24,000 nucleotides of DNA from an uncultured Acetobacteraceae bacterium (lineage in GTDB: Bacteria > Pseudomonadota > Alphaproteobacteria > Acetobacterales > Acetobacteraceae): NCBI GenBank assembly GCA_964235765.1, contig CAXSDH010000023.1, forward strand, positions 14,306 to 38,305. The letters run 5' to 3'. This document shows positions 2,546-9,466 of the stretch, in pieces. Position 1 is the stretch's first letter; every line of letters starts with the position of its first letter. A model generated the notes under the pieces. It did not search any database. It saw only the letters and a program-made list of their open reading frames with translations, and had not been told where the DNA came from. A program made the translations under genes and the position numbers.

Positions 2546-5500
2546 TCAGCGGTTCCACTGGATCAGCAGGTAGTCGATCGCGTCTGGCGTGTCCTTCAGC
2601 AGGGTATCTTGCGTGATGCTGAAATGCGCGTCGGCGGTGGCCTGGGTGAGGCCGGTGAAGGTCATGGAGCCGAGGATGCCGGTGCCTTCGCCGTTCAGTT
2701 CGGAGTGGATGGTCAGGCCGGTGTAGCCGGCGGCGCCGTCCGATGCGGTGAAGGGCAGGGTGCTGAGGCCGGGGTGGAAGCCGAAGATGGTGGCGGCGTC
2801 GCCCTGGTGGAAGTTGACGATGGTGCTCCAGGTCTCGACCGCGCCGCGGCCGTCGACGAAGAAGGTGTCGGTGCCGCCATCGCCGCCGTCGCCGCCGATG
2901 AGGAAGTTGGAGCCGCCGCCGCCGTCGAGCACGTTTTGGCCGCCCTTGGCGAACAGCGCGTCCGCGCCGGCCCCGCCGTGCAGGAACGCGTTCGGCACGG
3001 CGGCGGCGATGGCCACGGAATCCGTGCTGTTCCAGAGGTATTCCTGTTGCAGGTAGGTCACCGGGCCGGTGTAGGCCGTCCCCTGGGCATAGCCGACGCT
3101 GTTGGTGATGACGTCGGTGTAGGAGAACTTGGGCGGGTTGCCGGCCGCGGTGTCGGCCTGCGCGCCGACGATGGCGGCGAGGTTGGCGCCGGTGTAGGTG
3201 CCGGCCACGCTGCGGCTGTCGCCGGTGGCGGCCGCGGCGGCGAGCGCCGGCGCGGCGCGGCCCTCGACGACGGTATCGACGGCGGCCACGTCGGCCAGCA
3301 GCCCGGCCGGCGAAGCGCCGTCGGCGCCGAGCTTGGCGGTGAGCAGGTCGCGGCTCGCGCTGGCCAGCGCGGCGGTGTCCGTCGCGACCTGGCCGGTGAG
3401 GCCGTACGACTGCATGGCGGCCGGGCTGGTGGGGTCGAAGGCCTGGAACGGCTGGGCGGCGATGCCGGTGGCAATCCTGATGAACAGGTCGCCGGGGGCG
3501 CCGGCCGCCTGGGCAAGCGCCATGGTCTCGAACAGCACGGCATTGGCGATGAGCGCCTGGTTGGCGGTGCCGTTGACGTTCAGCACGCCGGAGACGGGGT
3601 CGAGCATGCCAAGCTCGGTGTCGCCGGGCAGGCCGAGCGCTGCGTTCACCATGGCGGTCGCCTGGCCGATGGTGGCCCCGGTGGTGGTGAGCAGCGTCTG
3701 CACCAGGGTGGTCAGCGCGTTGATGGCCGGCGCGCCGGCGGCGGCCGTGAGGCGGCCGGTGAACGGCAGGTTGGTGGAGGTGTCGGTGCCGCCGATCAGC
3801 ACCAGCGGGCCTGTCGCGGTGCTGCCGAGGATGTAGCGGCCCTGGGCGTCGGTGGTGGCGCTCACCTCGCCGGTGGTGAGCAGGCCGTCCCCGTTGGCGT
3901 CGGCGAATATGGTGGCGCCCTGGATGTAGCCATGGGTGGCGTGGCCCATCAGGCTGGAGCGGCCGAGGCTTTCGCCGGGGAAGGTGAAGGTCTGGGCGCG
4001 GACGTCGGACGGCGTGCCGGACTTGTGCTCGCTGGCGATCAGCAGGGCGCCGTTGGCGAGCTGGGTCGCGGCCGGGTGGTAGATGCTGGTGCCGGCGGCC
4101 GGCGTCTCGCCCTCGAACTCGTCGCCGGAAAGGCTGCCATCGGGGTTGAACACCTGGGCGCGGACATTGCGGTTGACGATGGTCTTGCCGCTGAAGCCGC
4201 CAAGCCCACCCGACTCCCAGGCAATGACGAACCGCCCGTCCGCCAGCGCCGTCAGGCTGGGCGCCGCCGGCGTCCCCGGCGTGAAGCCCACCGAGTAGTC
4301 CTCGGTCAGGGCCGTGCCGGTCGCGTCGAACACGCGGGCGCGCACCACCGCGAACGGCTGGTCGGCGGTCACCAGGCTCTCATCCACCCAGGCGATGGCG
4401 ACGCTGCCGTCCAGCAGCACGGTCACCGAAGCCTTGTCCTGCGTCCCGGCCGTGCCCGTGTTGACGGTGACGGCCCGGCCGGCCGAGCCGTCGGCCGCGT
4501 AGAACTGGGCAAAGATGTCCGGGGTGCTGCCGCTCACCAGCCCGGCCCGCGCGGCGAAGGCGACGACGAAGCCGCCATCGTGCAGCCCGGCCGCCGCCGG
4601 GTCGGCCGCGTCGTAGCTGGCCAAGGGCGCGGGCACGTCGAAATTGCCGCCGACCAGGGCGTTGTCGGCGCCGATCCGCTGGCCGGTCAGCTTCCGGGGG
4701 CCGTTCAGGCTGTCGTTCGTGCGCCAGAACGCGACCAGGCCGCCGCTGCCGAGCGAGGCCACGACCGGCTGGTCCTGCGGGCCGACCCGGGCCGCGTTGA
4801 GGAACACCGCGTCGCCATCGGGCGCGCCGAACTGGTCGAAGAACCGCCCGCGAATGTCGGTGGAGCGCGTGAAGTTGCCGTTGCGGTCCGTCTCGTTGTG
4901 CCGGTCGGTCCAGGCGACGAAGAACCGCCCGCCCGAAAGGCCTGTGACGGTGGGCGAGGTCTGGTCGAAGCCATCGACGAGGCTGATGGGGATGACCGGT
5001 CCGGACTTCGTGCCGTCGGCGTTCAGCAACTGCCCCCGGATCTCGAACCGGCCGCCAGCGTCCGGACTGTCGTCGACCCAGGCCACGACCGACTTGCCGG
5101 TGGCCAGCCCGGCAATGACGGGCGTGATGCGCTGCATGGTGTCGGTGGCGCCGGGGCTCATGAGCGCCTCGGTTCCCGCGGCGGCGCTGACCAGGACCTC
5201 GGGTCCGGCAGCCGCGGCGATCTGCGGCGGAGCCGGCGGCGGCGGCGGCACGGCCTGGAACTGCCGGGTGGCGAACCCCCCGCCGTCCTGGCTGATGAGG
5301 GACGAACCCTGCCGCAGGTTGAAGTCGGCGCCCTGCTTGGCGAGGGCGGCCAGGTCCGCCTGGCCGAACACGAGGTTGCCGCCCCCGCTCGCCACCAGCC
5401 CCCCGCCATCCTGGCTGATCAGGCCGCCGCCATCCTGGCTGATCAAGCCGCCGCCATCCTGGCTGATGAGCTTGGAGCCATCGGCCAGCCGGAAGCCGCC

Positions 5501-6238
5501 GCCGTCCTGGCTGATCAGCCCGCCGCCATCCTGGGAGATCAGGCCGGGCTTGTTGACGATGGCGTAGGCAAGGCTCGCGACGGCGCTGGCCGACCCCGCG
5601 CTGAGCAGGTTCGAGTACATCGTCCCGTTCAGCAGCGCGAGCGCCCCATCGGGACGCAACAGCGAACTGTCGTTCAGCTTCACCCCGGTCGGCAGCAGCT
5701 TGTACTGCCCGGCCGGCACCTGAATTTTTATGCTGTGCACGACCAGGGCGGACGGCGCTTTCGTGTCGCCGGCGTCGGCCGAGGCAAGCAGCAGCTTGTA
5801 GTCGCCAGTCGTGTTGATGTTGAAGCTGTAGCCCGCGTGATGGGTCCGGTGCCCGTTGCCGATCCACTCGTTCACATCCCCCAGCAGCAAGGGCGTGATG
5901 AAGCCGGCCGAATTGGCGAGCAGGGCGAAGGCGAAGTCGTTATGGGCGCGGTCGCCCGGAAGGTAGTCGTAGTCCAACACCAGCTTCTCGCCCGCAACCA
6001 GGTGGATCGGGGCGAATTGCGCGGTGGTCATCGTCTGCGGGGCGTAACCCTCGATCGCCTTGATGATGCCGTTGGTATAGGCGTCGTTGGCGAAGGCGGA
6101 ATAGCCGAACCCGGTCGCAGGCTTCAGCCCGGATACGATGCGCAGCCCGTCCGACCCGGTGCTCACCTGCGCCGCATTCGCCGCGACGGCCGAGGTCTGT
6201 CCACGAGTGAGATCCAGCGAGAAGTCCAGGTTGGGCAT
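2546..6238 (-). CDS. Giant (about 1230 aa) cysteine-free mosaic repeat exoprotein with a C-terminal RTX (hemolysin-type Ca-binding) block; probable type I secretion substrate or adhesin
   Basis: ORF 2546..6328. I prefer the start at 6238 (MPNLDFSLDL) because GGAG lies 6 nt upstream, and because the 30 codons above it hold the only two Cys residues in the ORF. No N-terminal signal peptide is visible. There are four in-register nonapeptides (LHGGAGADA LFAKGGQNV LDGGGGSNF LIGGDGGDG) about 105 aa from the C-terminus. Confidence 0.85.
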   Translation of the reverse strand: MPNLDFSLDLTRGQTSAVAANAAQVSTGSDGLRIVSGLKPATGFGYSAFANDAYTNGIIKAIEGYAPQTMTTAQFAPIHLVAGEKLVLDYDYLPGDRAHNDFAFALLANSAGFITPLLLGDVNEWIGNGHRTHHAGYSFNINTTGDYKLLLASADAGDTKAPSALVVHSIKIQVPAGQYKLLPTGVKLNDSSLLRPDGALALLNGTMYSNLLSAGSASAVASLAYAIVNKPGLISQDGGGLISQDGGGFRLADGSKLISQDGGGLISQDGGGLISQDGGGLVASGGGNLVFGQADLAALAKQGADFNLRQGSSLISQDGGGFATRQFQAVPPPPPAPPQIAAAAGPEVLVSAAAGTEALMSPGATDTMQRITPVIAGLATGKSVVAWVDDSPDAGGRFEIRGQLLNADGTKSGPVIPISLVDGFDQTSPTVTGLSGGRFFVAWTDRHNETDRNGNFTRSTDIRGRFFDQFGAPDGDAVFLNAARVGPQDQPVVASLGSGGLVAFWRTNDSLNGPRKLTGQRIGADNALVGGNFDVPAPLASYDAADPAAAGLHDGGFVVAFAARAGLVSGSTPDIFAQFYAADGSAGRAVTVNTGTAGTQDKASVTVLLDGSVAIAWVDESLVTADQPFAVVRARVFDATGTALTEDYSVGFTPGTPAAPSLTALADGRFVIAWESGGLGGFSGKTIVNRNVRAQVFNPDGSLSGDEFEGETPAAGTSIYHPAATQLANGALLIASEHKSGTPSDVRAQTFTFPGESLGRSSLMGHATHGYIQGATIFADANGDGLLTTGEVSATTDAQGRYILGSTATGPLVLIGGTDTSTNLPFTGRLTAAAGAPAINALTTLVQTLLTTTGATIGQATAMVNAALGLPGDTELGMLDPVSGVLNVNGTANQALIANAVLFETMALAQAAGAPGDLFIRIATGIAAQPFQAFDPTSPAAMQSYGLTGQVATDTAALASASRDLLTAKLGADGASPAGLLADVAAVDTVVEGRAAPALAAAAATGDSRSVAGTYTGANLAAIVGAQADTAAGNPPKFSYTDVITNSVGYAQGTAYTGPVTYLQQEYLWNSTDSVAIAAAVPNAFLHGGAGADALFAKGGQNVLDGGGGSNFLIGGDGGDGGTDTFFVDGRGAVETWSTIVNFHQGDAATIFGFHPGLSTLPFTASDGAAGYTGLTIHSELNGEGTGILGSMTFTGLTQATADAHFSITQDTLLKDTPDAIDYLLIQWNR
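2864..2980 (-). other. RTX nonapeptide block (4 GGxGxD-type repeats) inside the giant gene
   Basis: Period-9 pattern L-x-G-G-x-G-x-[DN]-x read in the translation, followed by GTDTFFVDG and a Cys-free tail ending IDYLLIQWNR. Confidence 0.8.
3974..5116 (-). repeat. Seven protein-level repeats of about 56-62 residues (beta-propeller-like) inside the giant gene
   Basis: A recurrent pair of anchors. The first is VVAW / FVAW / LVAFW / FVVAF / VAIAW / FVIAW / LLIAS. It is followed 16-22 residues later by IRGQLLNADG / IRGRFFDQFG / LTGQRIGADN / IFAQFYAADG / VRARVFDATG / VRAQVFNPDG / VRAQTFTF. Confidence 0.7.
5276..5542 (-). repeat. 24-bp (8-codon) tandem repeat array encoding LISQDGGG
   Basis: Six perfect LISQDGGG units plus degenerate in-register units (FRLADGSK, LVASGGGN, LVFGQADL). 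At the DNA level the units are near-identical (gccgccgccatcctggctgatcag on the + strand), and the few differences I checked are synonymous. Confidence 0.95.
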
Positions 6239-6326
6239 CGATCGCTCCAGCAAGGCGCCCTGTCCGCATTCGTTGCAGGATGAGCTGTGTTTCAATTCAC
6301 GCCCAGGTAGCACCTTCCTCTCGCGC

Positions 6327-6364
6327 AACGAACTTTAAATTCACAAAAAAATGCTAATTTCGAT
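6327..6364. promoter_or_regulatory. AT-rich core of the divergent intergenic region between the giant gene and the leuC-like operon
   Basis: aacgaactttaaattcacaaaaaaatgctaatttcgat is the most AT-rich stretch I noticed in the window. It lies between two divergent starts (6238 minus, 6491 plus). No confident -35/-10 pair could be assigned. Confidence 0.35.
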
Positions 6365-6490
6365 GCGCCAGAAGCAACCGCCGGGCTTCCCCGGGCCACG
6401 CAGGATTGTCCGCGCCCCCCTGCGGTTTGCCAAGCTGACGCGCCAGCCGCATGATGGCGAGCATTTCCCTACGAAAACCGGGGACCACCC

Positions 6491-7906
6491 ATGCCGCGCA
6501 CCATGTTCGAGAAGGTCTGGGACAGCCACCTGGTTGCGCGCCGCGCCGACGGGCGCGCCCTGGTCTATGTCGATCGGCACGTCATCCACGACCTGCACGC
6601 GCCGCACGCGTTCCGGCATCTCGAAGCCACCGGCCGCACCGTGCGGCGGCCCGACCTCACCGTCGCCGTCGTCGACCACATGGTCTCCACCGCCGCCGGC
6701 CGGGACCGGAGCACCAACCCGGCCGCCCTGCCGTTCATCGAGCAGATCGAGGCCGGCACCAAGCGCCACGGCATCCGCCTCTTCGGCCTCGACGACCCGG
6801 CGCAAGGCATCGTCCACGTCGTCGCGCCCGAACTCGGCATCGCCCTGCCCGGCGCAACCCTGGCCTGCCCCGACAGCCACGTCTGCACCGTCGGCGCGCT
6901 GGGGACCGTGGGGTTCGCGACCGGAACCACCGAAGTCAGCCATGTGCTCGCGACGCAGACCCTGGCGATCAAGAAGCCCAAGCAGATGCGCGTCACGCTC
7001 GACGGCGCGCTTCGCCCCGGGGTCACGGCCAAGGACGTGATCCTGTTCCTGATCGGCAGGCTGGGCTCCGACGCGGCGCGCGGCCAGGCGGTGGAATACG
7101 CCGGCGCGGTCGTCGCCGCCATGCCGGTCGAGGCGCGCATGACCCTGTGCAACATGACGACCGAACTCGGCGGCCGCACCGCGGTCATCGCGCCGGACGA
7201 AAGCGTCGCCGCCTGGCTCGAAGCCCGCCGCTACGCGCCCACCGGGTCCGCCTGGGATGCCGCGGTCCAGAGCTGGCGCGGCCTGCGCACCGACCCCGGC
7301 GCGCTGTTCGACATCGACGTCGTCGTGCCGTGCAGCGAACTGGAGCCGCAGGTCACCTGGGGCACCGACCCCAGCCACGTGACCGCGGTGGGCGGCCGCG
7401 TGCCGGAGATGCCGGCGGAAGCCGGCCCGCGGGGCGCCATGGAACGGGCGGCCATGGAACGGGCGGCCGACTACATGGGGCTGCCGCCAGGGACCTCTCT
7501 GGCGGACGTCACGATCGACCGGGTGTTCATCGGCTCCTGCACCAACGGCCGCCTGTCCGATCTGCGCGCCGCGGCACGGCTGGTGGCGGGGCGGCACGTC
7601 GCCCACGGCGTGCGCGCCGCGGTGGTGCCCGGCTCGAGCGCGGTCAAGCGCGCGGCGGAGGCGGAGGGCCTGGCGGACATCTTCCTCCAGGCCGGCTTCG
7701 AGTGGCGGGAATCCGGGTGTTCGATGTGCGCCGGGCTGAACGGCGAGGACGGCAAGCCCGGCGAGCGCGTCGTGTCCACCACCAACCGAAACTTCGCCGG
7801 CCGGCAAGGCGCCGGGGTGCGGACCCATCTGGCGAGCCCGGAGACCGCGGCGGCAGCGGCCGTGACCGGGCGCTTCACCGATCCGCGCACGCTGGTTCCC
7901 GCCTGA
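6491..7906 (+). CDS. leuC: 3-isopropylmalate dehydratase large-subunit family protein (LeuC-like, aconitase superfamily); probably a paralog with altered substrate-site motifs
   Basis: 471 aa, and as I recall E. coli LeuC it aligns end to end (MFEKVWDSHLV, YVDRH, EVSHVLATQTL, RMTLCNM, PQVTWGT). The Fe-S ligand motifs IGSCTNG and GCSMC are retained, as is STTNRNFAGRQG and the HLASPETAAAAAVTG ending. Confidence 0.9.
   Translation: MPRTMFEKVWDSHLVARRADGRALVYVDRHVIHDLHAPHAFRHLEATGRTVRRPDLTVAVVDHMVSTAAGRDRSTNPAALPFIEQIEAGTKRHGIRLFGLDDPAQGIVHVVAPELGIALPGATLACPDSHVCTVGALGTVGFATGTTEVSHVLATQTLAIKKPKQMRVTLDGALRPGVTAKDVILFLIGRLGSDAARGQAVEYAGAVVAAMPVEARMTLCNMTTELGGRTAVIAPDESVAAWLEARRYAPTGSAWDAAVQSWRGLRTDPGALFDIDVVVPCSELEPQVTWGTDPSHVTAVGGRVPEMPAEAGPRGAMERAAMERAADYMGLPPGTSLADVTIDRVFIGSCTNGRLSDLRAAARLVAGRHVAHGVRAAVVPGSSAVKRAAEAEGLADIFLQAGFEWRESGCSMCAGLNGEDGKPGERVVSTTNRNFAGRQGAGVRTHLASPETAAAAAVTGRFTDPRTLVPA
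7436..7465 (+). repeat. Perfect 15-bp tandem duplication (gccatggaacgggcg x2), in frame in the leuC-like gene (AMERA-AMERA)
   Basis: Read directly: 7436-7450 equals 7451-7465. Confidence 0.95.
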
Positions 7907-8511
7907 TGCGCCCGTTCCAGGCCGTCACCGGCCGGGTCGCCCTGCTGGACCGGGACGACGTGGACAGCGATCAAATCCTGCCCGGGGCCTGGATGCGCGG
8001 CATCAGCCCGGATTTCGCGGCCGGATTCTTCGGGCTGTGGCGGCGCGACCCGGCCTTCGTGCTGAACCGGCCGGAACTGCAAGGCGCTCCCATCCTGATG
8101 GCCGGCCGCAACTTCGGCTGCGGCAGCACGCGGGAGCACGCCGTGTGGGCCGTCGCCGCCTACGGCATCCGGGTGCTGCTGGCCGCCAGCTTCGCCGAGG
8201 TGTTCCGCGAGAACTGCCTCAAGAACGGCATCCTCGCCTTGCCGCTGCCCGAAGCGGCGCTGCAAGCCGTGCGGGAGGCCCAGTCCCGCGGCGCCCTGAC
8301 CATCGACCTGGCCGCGCAACGGATCACCGGACCGAACGGCTTCGCCCTCGCCTTCGACATCGCCGCAGCGGAGCGCACCGCGTTGCTGGAGGGGCTGGAC
8401 GACATCGGCATGTCGCTGAAATACACCGAAGCGATCCAGGCGTTCGAGCTGCGCGAGCGCGGCGCCCACCCCTGGTTGCAGTCGATGCAGGAACGGCCGG
8501 CCTCACGCTGA
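7906..8511 (+). CDS. leuD: 3-isopropylmalate dehydratase small-subunit family protein (LeuD-like)
   Basis: This is the last 201 codons of track ORF 6451..8511. The ATG at 7906 overlaps the leuC-like TGA by 1 nt (TGATG). Motifs: DVDSDQILPG, MAGRNFGCGSTREHAVWA, ASFAEVFRENCLKNGIL. Confidence 0.88.
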   Translation: MRPFQAVTGRVALLDRDDVDSDQILPGAWMRGISPDFAAGFFGLWRRDPAFVLNRPELQGAPILMAGRNFGCGSTREHAVWAVAAYGIRVLLAASFAEVFRENCLKNGILALPLPEAALQAVREAQSRGALTIDLAAQRITGPNGFALAFDIAAAERTALLEGLDDIGMSLKYTEAIQAFELRERGAHPWLQSMQERPASR

Positions 8512-8537
8512 GCCCAAAGTTTAAGGAAGCTGTCGCC

Positions 8538-9431
8538 ATGAGCCCAGGCAAGCGCCTGAAGAACCTGATCGCCCGTCCGGACATCCTGGTCATGCCCGGC
8601 GCCTACGACGCGCTCTCGGCCCGCCTGGTCCAGGCGCATGGCTTCGAGGCCGCGTTCGGCGGCGGCTCCGCGGCCACCTCCAGCCTGCTGGGCGAAGCGG
8701 ATTCCGGCCAGCTCAGCATGCGCGACTACGCCGACCACTACGCCCGGCTGGCGCGGGCGATCGACATCCCGGTCCTCGTCGACGCCGATACCGGCTTCGG
8801 CGGAGTCCACAACGTGCAGCACATGGTGCGCGCCTTCGAGCGGGGCGGCGCGGCGGGCCTGTTCATCGAGGACCAGGTGTTCCCGAAGCGCTGCGGCTAC
8901 TTCGCCGGCAAGGCGGTGGTGCCGATGGCGGACATGGTCGCGAAGCTGAAGGCGGCCCTCGACGCCCGGCAGGACCCGGACTTCATCATCTGCGCCCGTA
9001 CCGACGTGCTGGGCCTGGAAGGCGAGGACGCCGCGATCGAGCGCGCCCAGCGCTTCCTGGAAGCCGGGGTGGACATGACCTTCGTGCAGGGCGCGGACAC
9101 CGCGCAGTCGCTCGCGCGGGTCTGCCGCGAAGTCGCCTGCCCGCAGCTCGCCAACGTGTCCCAGGCCAGCAGCGCCGTGCCGCTGAGCGTGGCCGAGATC
9201 GGGCAAGCCGGGGCGGCGGCGGTGATCTTCCCGGTGGCGACGCTGCGCGCGGCGATCCGGGCAGCCGACGACGTGCTCGCGGCGCTGCGGCGGGACGGCT
9301 CCATCGCCGCCGTGCAGGAACGGCTGATGAGCTCGCCCGACTTCAACGCCCTGTGCGGCCTGGAAGCGCTGCAATCGCGCGAGGACACGTTCATCCGCCA
9401 GGCCCAAGCCCTCGTCGGCAGCACTTCGTAG
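8538..9431 (+). CDS. Isocitrate lyase / PEP mutase superfamily enzyme (methylisocitrate-lyase / dimethylmalate-lyase / oxaloacetate-decarboxylase-like)
   Basis: Internal ATG at 8538 in ORF 8037..9431, with AAGGAAG 8 nt upstream. Motifs: LVMPGAYDALSARL, PVLVDADTGFGG, GLFIEDQVFPKRCGY, FIICARTD. It lies 26 nt after the leuD-like stop. Confidence 0.85.
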   Translation: MSPGKRLKNLIARPDILVMPGAYDALSARLVQAHGFEAAFGGGSAATSSLLGEADSGQLSMRDYADHYARLARAIDIPVLVDADTGFGGVHNVQHMVRAFERGGAAGLFIEDQVFPKRCGYFAGKAVVPMADMVAKLKAALDARQDPDFIICARTDVLGLEGEDAAIERAQRFLEAGVDMTFVQGADTAQSLARVCREVACPQLANVSQASSAVPLSVAEIGQAGAAAVIFPVATLRAAIRAADDVLAALRRDGSIAAVQERLMSSPDFNALCGLEALQSREDTFIRQAQALVGSTS

Positions 9432-9466
9432 GCCGGCCTGACCCCAACGAAGCCGGGCCCCGATCG

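Follow-up and report, generated by a model that had tools for sequence, protein, structure and literature searches.

The leuC′–leuD′–lyase locus

The DNA analysed here (the window) is a stretch of 24,000 nucleotides from an uncultured Acetobacteraceae bacterium (assembly GCA_964235765.1, contig CAXSDH010000023.1, positions 14,306 to 38,305 of the forward strand). Between positions 6491 and 9431, it carries three closely packed genes on the plus strand, which encode the two subunits of an aconitase-family hydro-lyase that are paralogs of LeuC and LeuD and a member of the isocitrate lyase (ICL)/phosphoenolpyruvate (PEP) mutase superfamily. We call these three genes the trio and mark the LeuC and LeuD paralogs of the window with primes. 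The elements of the locus are:

6239–6490, plus strand: intergenic leader and putative promoter region, shared with a divergent exoprotein gene; 252 nucleotides, no coding signal
6491–7906, plus strand: LeuC′, large subunit of an aconitase-family [4Fe-4S] hydro-lyase, LeuC paralog; 471 amino acids
7906–8511, plus strand: LeuD′, small subunit of the hydro-lyase; 201 amino acids
8512–8537, plus strand: spacer between LeuD′ and the lyase with the ribosome-binding site AAGGAAG; 26 nucleotides
8538–9431, plus strand: ICL/PEP-mutase-superfamily enzyme, a probable Mg-dependent C–C lyase of the RCGY clade; 297 amino acids

The reading frames of LeuC′ and LeuD′ share one base in the junction TGATG, in which the stop codon TGA (7904–7906) of the former runs into the start codon ATG (7906–7908) of the latter. 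A sequence-only reading of this DNA had described three packed genes with a 1-nucleotide overlap followed by a 26-nucleotide gap, and all of its coordinates were confirmed. A scan of the locus found no intrinsic terminator between the trio genes, and the leader contains a predicted σ70-like site (6427–6455, plus strand; two sites found compared to 0.1 expected in shuffled sequences). Immediately after the lyase stop codon and before ymdB lies a GC-rich inverted repeat, GGCCGGCC...GCCGGGCC (9432–9466), which has no T tract and may represent an operon end.

The third-position GC content (GC3) is 0.92–0.96 in all three trio frames, similar to that of the adjoining real genes in a window with an overall GC content of 70%. 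A recent insertion of the trio, recognizable by odd composition, is not supported, as both GC and GC3 equal those of the surroundings. Logan contigs, which were produced by another assembler from the same data (the probable source run is a lichen metagenome), join the upstream gene to LeuC′ (5500–6607) and span 6578–8501 and 8532–9453 without differences, and their depth is even at about 11. The source-run contigs show single-base variants, at roughly half that depth, at 8502, 8522, 8531 and 9454, that is, at the end of LeuD′, in the spacer and just past the lyase gene, which suggests two co-occurring strains.

LeuC′ and LeuD′ are distinct from the leucine enzymes

The genome contains three LeuC-type genes, located in the window, on contig C3 and on contig C16. 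The canonical leuC, leuD and leuB stand together on C3, where LeuC scores 791 bits on TIGR00170 and the leuB product scores 475 bits against a cut-off of 353. LeuC′ and LeuD′ are 52% and 40% identical to these canonical copies, respectively. In a maximum-likelihood tree of LeuC proteins, LeuC′ groups with 34 relatives in a single clade (stem of 0.67 changes per column, support 85/100). Canonical LeuC falls outside this clade, as does a third clade of paralogs, to which the C16 copy belongs. Canonical LeuC (755–781 bits) is also present in all four proteobacterial trio carriers that were checked, and neither leuA nor leuB lies near the trio in any carrier examined. The trio is not a leucine biosynthesis unit. 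This agrees with the sequence-only reading, which had held that these genes are probably not the leucine-biosynthetic leuCD and had proposed looking for a second, canonical leuC/leuD pair beside leuB; with that pair on C3 and LeuC′ in a separate clade, the contrary case of a single leuCD copy per genome does not apply.

By profile search, LeuC′ is a full-length large subunit of the aconitase family (PF00330, 494 bits). It narrowly passes the cut-off of TIGR00170 (569.5 bits versus 560.25), a model that fails to separate the paralogs, as all three LeuC clades pass it. NCBIfam NF009116, the top match of LeuC′, was tried as a marker of the clade and rejected since canonical LeuC scores 755 on it. 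The Fe–S cysteine motifs GSCTN (from residue 348) and GCSMC (from residue 409) are retained in LeuC′, as had been noticed from the sequence, and the catalytic blocks D-S-H, CNM..E (N/E) and NRNF.GRQG are kept as well.

Two substrate-site motifs of LeuC′ are altered. The first reads DRHVIHDLHAPHAF (encoded by 6572–6613) and the second CPDSHVCTVGALGT (encoded by 6866–6907), at sites where the canonical LeuC of the same genome has DRHLVHEVTSPQAF and CGDSHTSTHGAMGA, respectively. The canonical HEVTSPQAF and GDSHT.THG are thereby converted into HDLHAPHAF and PDSHVCTVG, and these changes are invariant or nearly so over the 35 rows of the LeuC′ clade and differ from all five canonical sequences. Nineteen positions, residues 35–37 and 127 among them, are fixed differently in the LeuC′ clade and in canonical LeuC; the clade-diagnostic residues include L35, H36, A37 and P127. 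The sequence-only reading had noted the deviation of the two motifs from E. coli LeuC. As the C3 LeuC of this genome carries motifs of the E. coli type, the contrast is real and is not an alphaproteobacterial habit, an alternative that fails because the changes mark a separate clade.

The variable loop of LeuC′ carries a perfect tandem duplication of 15 base pairs (7436–7465, plus strand), read from the sequence, that encodes AMERA-AMERA. Relatives differ in length at this site, and the duplication is intact and ungapped in the Logan contig covering 6578–8501.

LeuD′ matches PF00694 and scores 195 bits on NF002458, 142.4 bits on TIGR00171 (cut-off 116.25) and 68.6 bits on LEUD_arch (cut-off 108.95). 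The LeuD′ clade is characterized by a P-x-x-x-x-R variant of the recognition loop and by the motif GCGSTREHA, and six residues are missing in the Acetobacteraceae-type LeuD′ proteins, that of the window included. The recognition-loop Arg was evaluated as a marker of a tricarboxylate substrate, by analogy to the YLRT motif of homoaconitase, and rejected: canonical LeuDs have a Lys and the other paralog clade also has an Arg.

A structural model of the LeuC′–LeuD′ complex reached an ipSAE of 0.92, compared to 0.00 for the best control; this mark is attained by 55 of 80 solved complexes and by 3 of 110 mismatched pairs. LeuC′ and LeuD′ are thus predicted to form a heterodimer, where a pass in a family with a known complex speaks of likeness and is not proof of binding. 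In the model, LeuC′ residues 35–36 and 127–129 contact loop 26–33 of LeuD′ at the interface. This region sets the substrate choice of the archaeal isopropylmalate and homoaconitate enzymes. The clade-diagnostic changes of LeuC′ fall in the predicted substrate cleft.

A lyase clade linked to LeuC′ and LeuD′

The product of the third gene matches PF13714 (166 bits), and its top family match is prpB (TIGR02317), which it hits below the cut-off (247.6 bits versus 354.4). The true prpB of the genome is found elsewhere, on contig C2, and scores 416.6 bits on the same model. Among solved structures, E. coli PrpB is the top relative (1mum, 174 bits, E = 4e-50), and the oxaloacetate decarboxylase PA4872 ranks 18th (3b8i, 90.8 bits, E = 1e-24). 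The protein-atlas matches are generic ‘methylisocitrate lyase’ clusters only.

We aligned the lyase to E. coli PrpB and to the four other superfamily members of the genome. D55, D82, D84, E111, C119 and R154 are invariant in the nine-sequence alignment A1, and the lyase keeps the counterparts of PrpB D58, E115, C123, R158 and the DxD Mg site, namely, the Mg ligands, the Arg and the loop Cys. These residues constitute the core of ICL and methylisocitrate lyase (MICL) catalysis (PMC7609661). Several other PrpB positions are changed in the clade to which the window lyase belongs:

PrpB loop His (KRCGH): Tyr in the clade (window loop KRCGY)
PrpB Glu188: Gln in the clade (also in the window) or Met in a Xanthobacteraceae subclade
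PrpB T-E-F after Asn210: S-Q-A in the clade
PrpB Tyr43 and Ser45: changed in the clade
PrpB Arg241: unconserved in the clade

The changes are absent from the PrpB-aligned relatives that we compared. A [K/N]RCGY loop combined with Gln or Met at the Glu188 position occurs in all 33 clade lyases, and these RCGY lyases form one monophyletic clade (SH-aLRT 100, stem 0.66). To our knowledge, this signature occurs in no solved or characterised relative. In the Xanthobacteraceae subclade, the loop Lys is replaced by Asn, the Phe186 position is occupied by a Lys, and Asn210 is also lost. In PrpB, roles are assigned to the Glu188, His125 and Phe186/Leu234/Pro236 positions, of which F186, L234 and P236 make up the pocket for the C2 methyl group. 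The three pocket positions read F, I and P in the window lyase, which would fit pyruvate as a product, and the altered leaving-group side would argue against succinate.

The order LeuC′–LeuD′–lyase is found in all six assemblies reached via close or distant homologs (60–81% identity) and on a plasmid of Roseomonas haemaphysalidis (p546-2), whose LeuC′ and LeuD′ homologs are WP_207415396 and WP_207415397. A lyase scan of species-representative genomes gave 80 loci, of which 27 encode [K/N]RCGY lyases and 53 encode KRCGH lyases. LeuC′ (56–65% identical) and LeuD′ lie directly upstream of 23 of the 27 RCGY lyases, and in one more locus LeuD′ is present at the contig end. None of the 53 KRCGH lyases has a LeuC′ of this clade beside it; a few are accompanied by distant short-type aconitase-family genes (DmdAB-like modules). 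The three-gene synteny, a check of which the sequence-only reading had recommended, is thus conserved in other genomes, namely, in each relative whose flanking DNA extends far enough. Furthermore, the RCGY-lyase tree and the LeuC′ tree agree in their inner groups, which is what co-inheritance of the genes would produce.

The carriers, about 30 genomes, belong to the Acetobacteraceae, Xanthobacteraceae and Beijerinckiaceae and, in one case, to the Vulcanimicrobiota (‘Candidatus Lustribacter’), so that the linkage of LeuC′ and LeuD′ to the lyase clade spans at least two phyla; a Sphaerotilaceae isolate has the lyase only. Roseomonas haemaphysalidis 546, Acidisphaera sp. L21 and Paraburkholderia sp. 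ZP32-5 are carriers in culture. An ortholog-level lyase (58% identical) is present in one of ten other genomes of the same genus (G004), where LeuC′ and LeuD′ are encoded on the same short contig, and another (G008) has a 44%-identical hit only, which is no closer than the ordinary paralogs of the window genome (39–41%). This patchy occurrence within the genus indicates that the trio is an accessory trait.

Importer genes, for TctC or TctCBA, MFS or NitT/TauT-type ATP-binding cassette (ABC) systems, usually adjoin the trio in the relatives, often together with a GntR-FCD regulator, and this setting fits catabolism. The NitT/TauT-linked arrangement is seen in locus L025. Beyond these neighbours, the survey of flanking gene families showed no enzyme common to the entire clade. 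A divergent BKACE and HpcH/HpaI pair is common only to the closest Acetobacteraceae relatives (LeuC′ 77–81% identical), with HpcH/HpaI genes accompanying the trio in L022, L026 and L028. In L023 and L027, genes for an FAA-family hydrolase and for a flavin hydroxylase adjoin the trio, and no gentisate dioxygenase was seen in these two loci. The Xanthobacteraceae neighbours comprise unrelated regulators, a GGDEF protein, a YggS-like protein, a glyoxalase, TctC and parts of a Liv-type ABC importer.

The window trio lies between the exoprotein gene and ymdB-yebC-ruvCAB. The former is an open reading frame of 1260 amino acids (2546–6328, minus strand) that is divergent from the trio and has a strong coding signal and no Pfam match. 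The latter are followed by tolQRAB-pal, cpoB, tilS, ftsH, folP and glmM. Three genomes of the same genus keep ymdB-yebC-ruvCA but lack both the trio and the genes upstream of it.

Proposed pathway, alternatives and related systems

The sequence-only reading had proposed a catabolic or shunt operon in which an isomerase is paired with a lyase, and the conserved gene order and the importers and GntR regulators of the relatives support it. We consider it likely that the trio is a single operon for a two-step, coenzyme A (CoA)-free breakdown of an imported di- or tricarboxylic acid. The substrate is most likely a branched organic acid that is taken up and split. We infer the reaction types, the direction of the pathway and the substrate as follows. 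The acid would be imported from outside. In the first step, LeuC′D′, acting as a heterodimeric [4Fe-4S] hydro-lyase, would either hydrate a substituted cis-butenedioate of the maleate or citraconate type or shift the hydroxyl group of a 2-substituted malate, and both routes would lead to a (2R)-hydroxy acid. The reaction may thus be an isomerisation of a 2-substituted to a 3-substituted malate, as had been envisaged, or it may be only the hydration of a substituted maleate. In the second step, the ICL/PEP-mutase-family enzyme would bind the product via Mg2+ and cut its C2–C3 bond, which would release pyruvate or glyoxylate as the 2-oxoacid along with a carboxylic acid; the loop Cys would protonate the leaving carbanion.

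Two substrates come first among our guesses, and each of them is unlikely if taken individually. One is citraconate/(R)-citramalate, which would be converted into pyruvate and acetate. The known itaconate genes do not handle citraconate/(R)-citramalate (PMC9875883). The other is the 2-methyl-3-alkyl-maleates of fungal or lichen origin, which would give pyruvate and a fatty acid; this guess draws only on the lichen source and the less polar leaving-group pocket. Maleate is a candidate because of the FAA-family hydrolase and the flavin hydroxylase in the two relatives L023 and L027. It is possible, if doubtful, that the RCGY proteins are a functionally new branch of the ICL/PEP-mutase superfamily and that, together with LeuC′D′, they form an undescribed CoA-free pathway for acids whose catabolic genes are unknown. 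Such acids may include citraconate, (R)-citramalate, alkyl-substituted maleates and the alkylcitrate-derived acids of fungi and lichens. If this holds, a remodelled leaving-group pocket would explain the loss of the His, the Glu and, in part of the clade, the Arg.

Three observations weigh against a hydration-and-cleavage pathway of this kind. The lyase lacks the His of the KRCGH loop, Glu188 and the Tyr43/Ser45 residues seen in E. coli PrpB and, as far as is known, in the other characterised lyases of the superfamily, and with these residues lost, the enzyme may catalyse something other than the cleavage of a malate-type acid. LeuC′ passes the cut-off of the LeuC equivalog model, which makes it conceivable that some isopropylmalate or citramalate isomerase activity may persist. 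Finally, among the window genes there is no transporter or regulator adjoining the trio; the absence of a regulator had been pointed out before, and none of the importer and GntR neighbours of the relatives is present there.

The same active-site losses feed the main rival explanation, which we regard as improbable. In it, the substrate would be a 2,3-dihydroxy acid (of the tartrate type, or hydroxycitrate), from which LeuC′D′ would remove water to give an oxaloacetate-type 2-oxoacid; the ICL-family protein would then decarboxylate this product in the manner of PA4872 of Pseudomonas aeruginosa. The clade lacks Glu188 and the loop His, which contribute to holding the leaving carboxylate in true lyases, importers of the tricarboxylate type are frequent beside the trio, and the NCBI pipeline names a 60%-identical homolog ‘oxaloacetate decarboxylase’. 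However, this name is automatic and not experimental, the similarity to PA4872 is weak (90.8 bits versus 174 bits for PrpB), and every member of the clade retains the loop Cys that serves the lyases as general acid.

It is very improbable that LeuC′D′ is a spare isozyme for leucine, or for isoleucine via the citramalate route, that came to lie beside an unrelated lyase by chance. Both subunits do pass the NCBIfam LeuC and LeuD cut-offs and their catalytic residues are all intact, but canonical leuCDB is present elsewhere in the genome, and LeuC′ belongs to a separate clade with diagnostic changes in the predicted substrate cleft. The tight linkage to a co-evolving lyase clade across phyla, the restriction of the ortholog-level lyase to one of ten congeneric genomes and the absence of leuA and leuB from the vicinity in the carriers examined also speak against a chance association. 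Least probable of all, and scarcely credible in our judgement, is a biosynthetic route, for example, to a phosphonate. A PEP-mutase-family enzyme is paired with an aconitase-like isomerase in the synthesis of FR-900098 and phosphinothricin, so the combination of the two superfamilies has a precedent there. The window protein, however, scores 119 bits on the PEP mutase model and 176 bits on the CPEP mutase model, below their own cut-offs and compared to 248 on prpB; biosynthetic genes such as those of synthases or dehydrogenases do not recur near the trio, and the recurrent neighbours are importers and GntR regulators.

The proposed hydration-and-cleavage pathway can be compared with several described systems. 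In the nicotinate fermentation of Eubacterium barkeri, DmdAB, a LeuCD-like Fe–S hydro-lyase, produces a (2R,3S)-substituted malate that Dml, a member of the ICL superfamily, cleaves to a 2-oxoacid plus a carboxylic acid, with no need for CoA. The analogy to DmdAB and Dml that was drawn in the sequence-only reading holds for this logic and breaks down for the type of subunit. In line with the NCBIfam name ‘LeuD/DmdB family’, DmdAB are of the short archaeal type (about 420 and 160 amino acids), for which reason the analogy is confined to the logic: the window pair is of the long bacterial type (471 and 201 amino acids) and best matches bacterial LeuC and LeuD models, and a module on contig C4 described below fits DmdAB better. 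In having RCGY and lacking Glu188, the window lyase would also differ from Dml. Neither the window nor the gene families flanking the trio in about 30 relatives include nicotinate-fermentation genes, such as that of methylitaconate isomerase.

The methylcitrate cycle (AcnB or AcnD/PrpF with PrpB) likewise has an aconitase-family step followed by an ICL-family lyase, and no solved structure is closer to the third protein than PrpB. The hydro-lyase of the trio is, however, of the LeuCD type and not AcnB or AcnD, and the third protein is below the prpB cut-off, with KRCGY in its loop and Gln at Glu188. With canonical LeuCD, LeuC′D′ shares its fold, subunit structure, Fe–S ligands and catalytic residues; it differs in its separate clade, its substitutions in the interface cleft, its lack of linkage to leuA or leuB and in being always an extra copy in the genomes checked. 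Maleate hydratase (HbzIJ of Pseudomonas alcaligenes; 57 and 24 kDa in P. pseudoalcaligenes) has two LeuCD-like subunits and adds water to maleate and citraconate, which yields D-malate and D-citramalate. Its reaction would be of the kind proposed for the first step, and the FAA-family hydrolase and flavin hydroxylase of L023 and L027 are as in the hbz cluster; no ICL-family lyase is known from that cluster. PA4872 and the third protein are members of one superfamily, and annotation pipelines give its name to third-gene homologs, but the two are distant and the window protein keeps the loop Cys of the lyase type.

Full-text literature searches found no published account of this trio family. Public records label its proteins LeuC, LeuD, ‘oxaloacetate decarboxylase’ or ‘methylisocitrate lyase’, and thousands of clade entries in the databases are assigned to leucine biosynthesis (one with the Gene Ontology term ‘leucine biosynthetic process’). 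This label is very probably wrong and inflates the apparent redundancy of the leucine pathway in soil and lichen bacteria. The trio would represent a small orphan pathway made up of two enzymes along with their cognate binding protein and a regulator of the GntR type, and its substrate would give a function to a widespread accessory trait of the Acetobacteraceae, Xanthobacteraceae and other bacteria. The clade is also a natural experiment on an ICL-superfamily active site that has lost the conserved His and Glu; one subclade has also lost the loop Lys and gained a Lys at the Phe186 position.

A remnant of a second trio is present on contig C136 of the same genome. At the position of the trio in the relative L026, the segment C136:3469-3742 contains about 50 frameshifted N-terminal codons of LeuC′ fused to lyase codons ~197–240, followed by unrelated sequence. 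Its neighbours are intact BKACE and HpcH/HpaI genes, which are 91% identical at the protein level to those of L026. As the remnant has only 73–81% DNA identity to the window trio, the intact trio is a diverged second copy and not a recent duplicate. The genome is a metagenome bin with an estimated contamination of 3.5%, and C136 could hence belong to a co-occurring strain. Contig C127 is 83% identical in DNA to the TctABC-BKACE block of L026 and does not carry the GntR gene.

The genome has two further modules that combine aconitase-family and ICL-family genes. The one on contig C16 (L017:8776-15584) is located directly after paaABCDE-like genes and encodes a KRCGH lyase, a 163-residue protein without a family, LeuC and LeuD of the third clade and TctC-TctB-TctA. 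The one on contig C4 (L018:1473-9485) encodes an IclR regulator, short subunits of the archaeal (DmdAB-like) type, an ICL-family protein with a KRCPA loop that has no Gly-His, and a five-gene Liv-type ABC importer; the C4 subunits are 418 and 173 amino acids long, and LEUD_arch scores 103.8, just below its cut-off of 108.95. In Pseudaquabacterium rugosum (L070:6114-10840), an RCGY lyase without LeuC′D′ is part of a TctC-HpcH/HpaI-TctB-TctA-lyase row under a LysR regulator. In Acidisphaera sp. L21, a LysR regulator, an HpcH/HpaI aldolase, third-clade LeuC and LeuD and an MFS transporter are clustered (L024:13888-19323) at a distance of 3 kb from the trio of that genome. In this variant of the module, a gene of the class II aldolase family stands where the ICL-family lyase would otherwise be.

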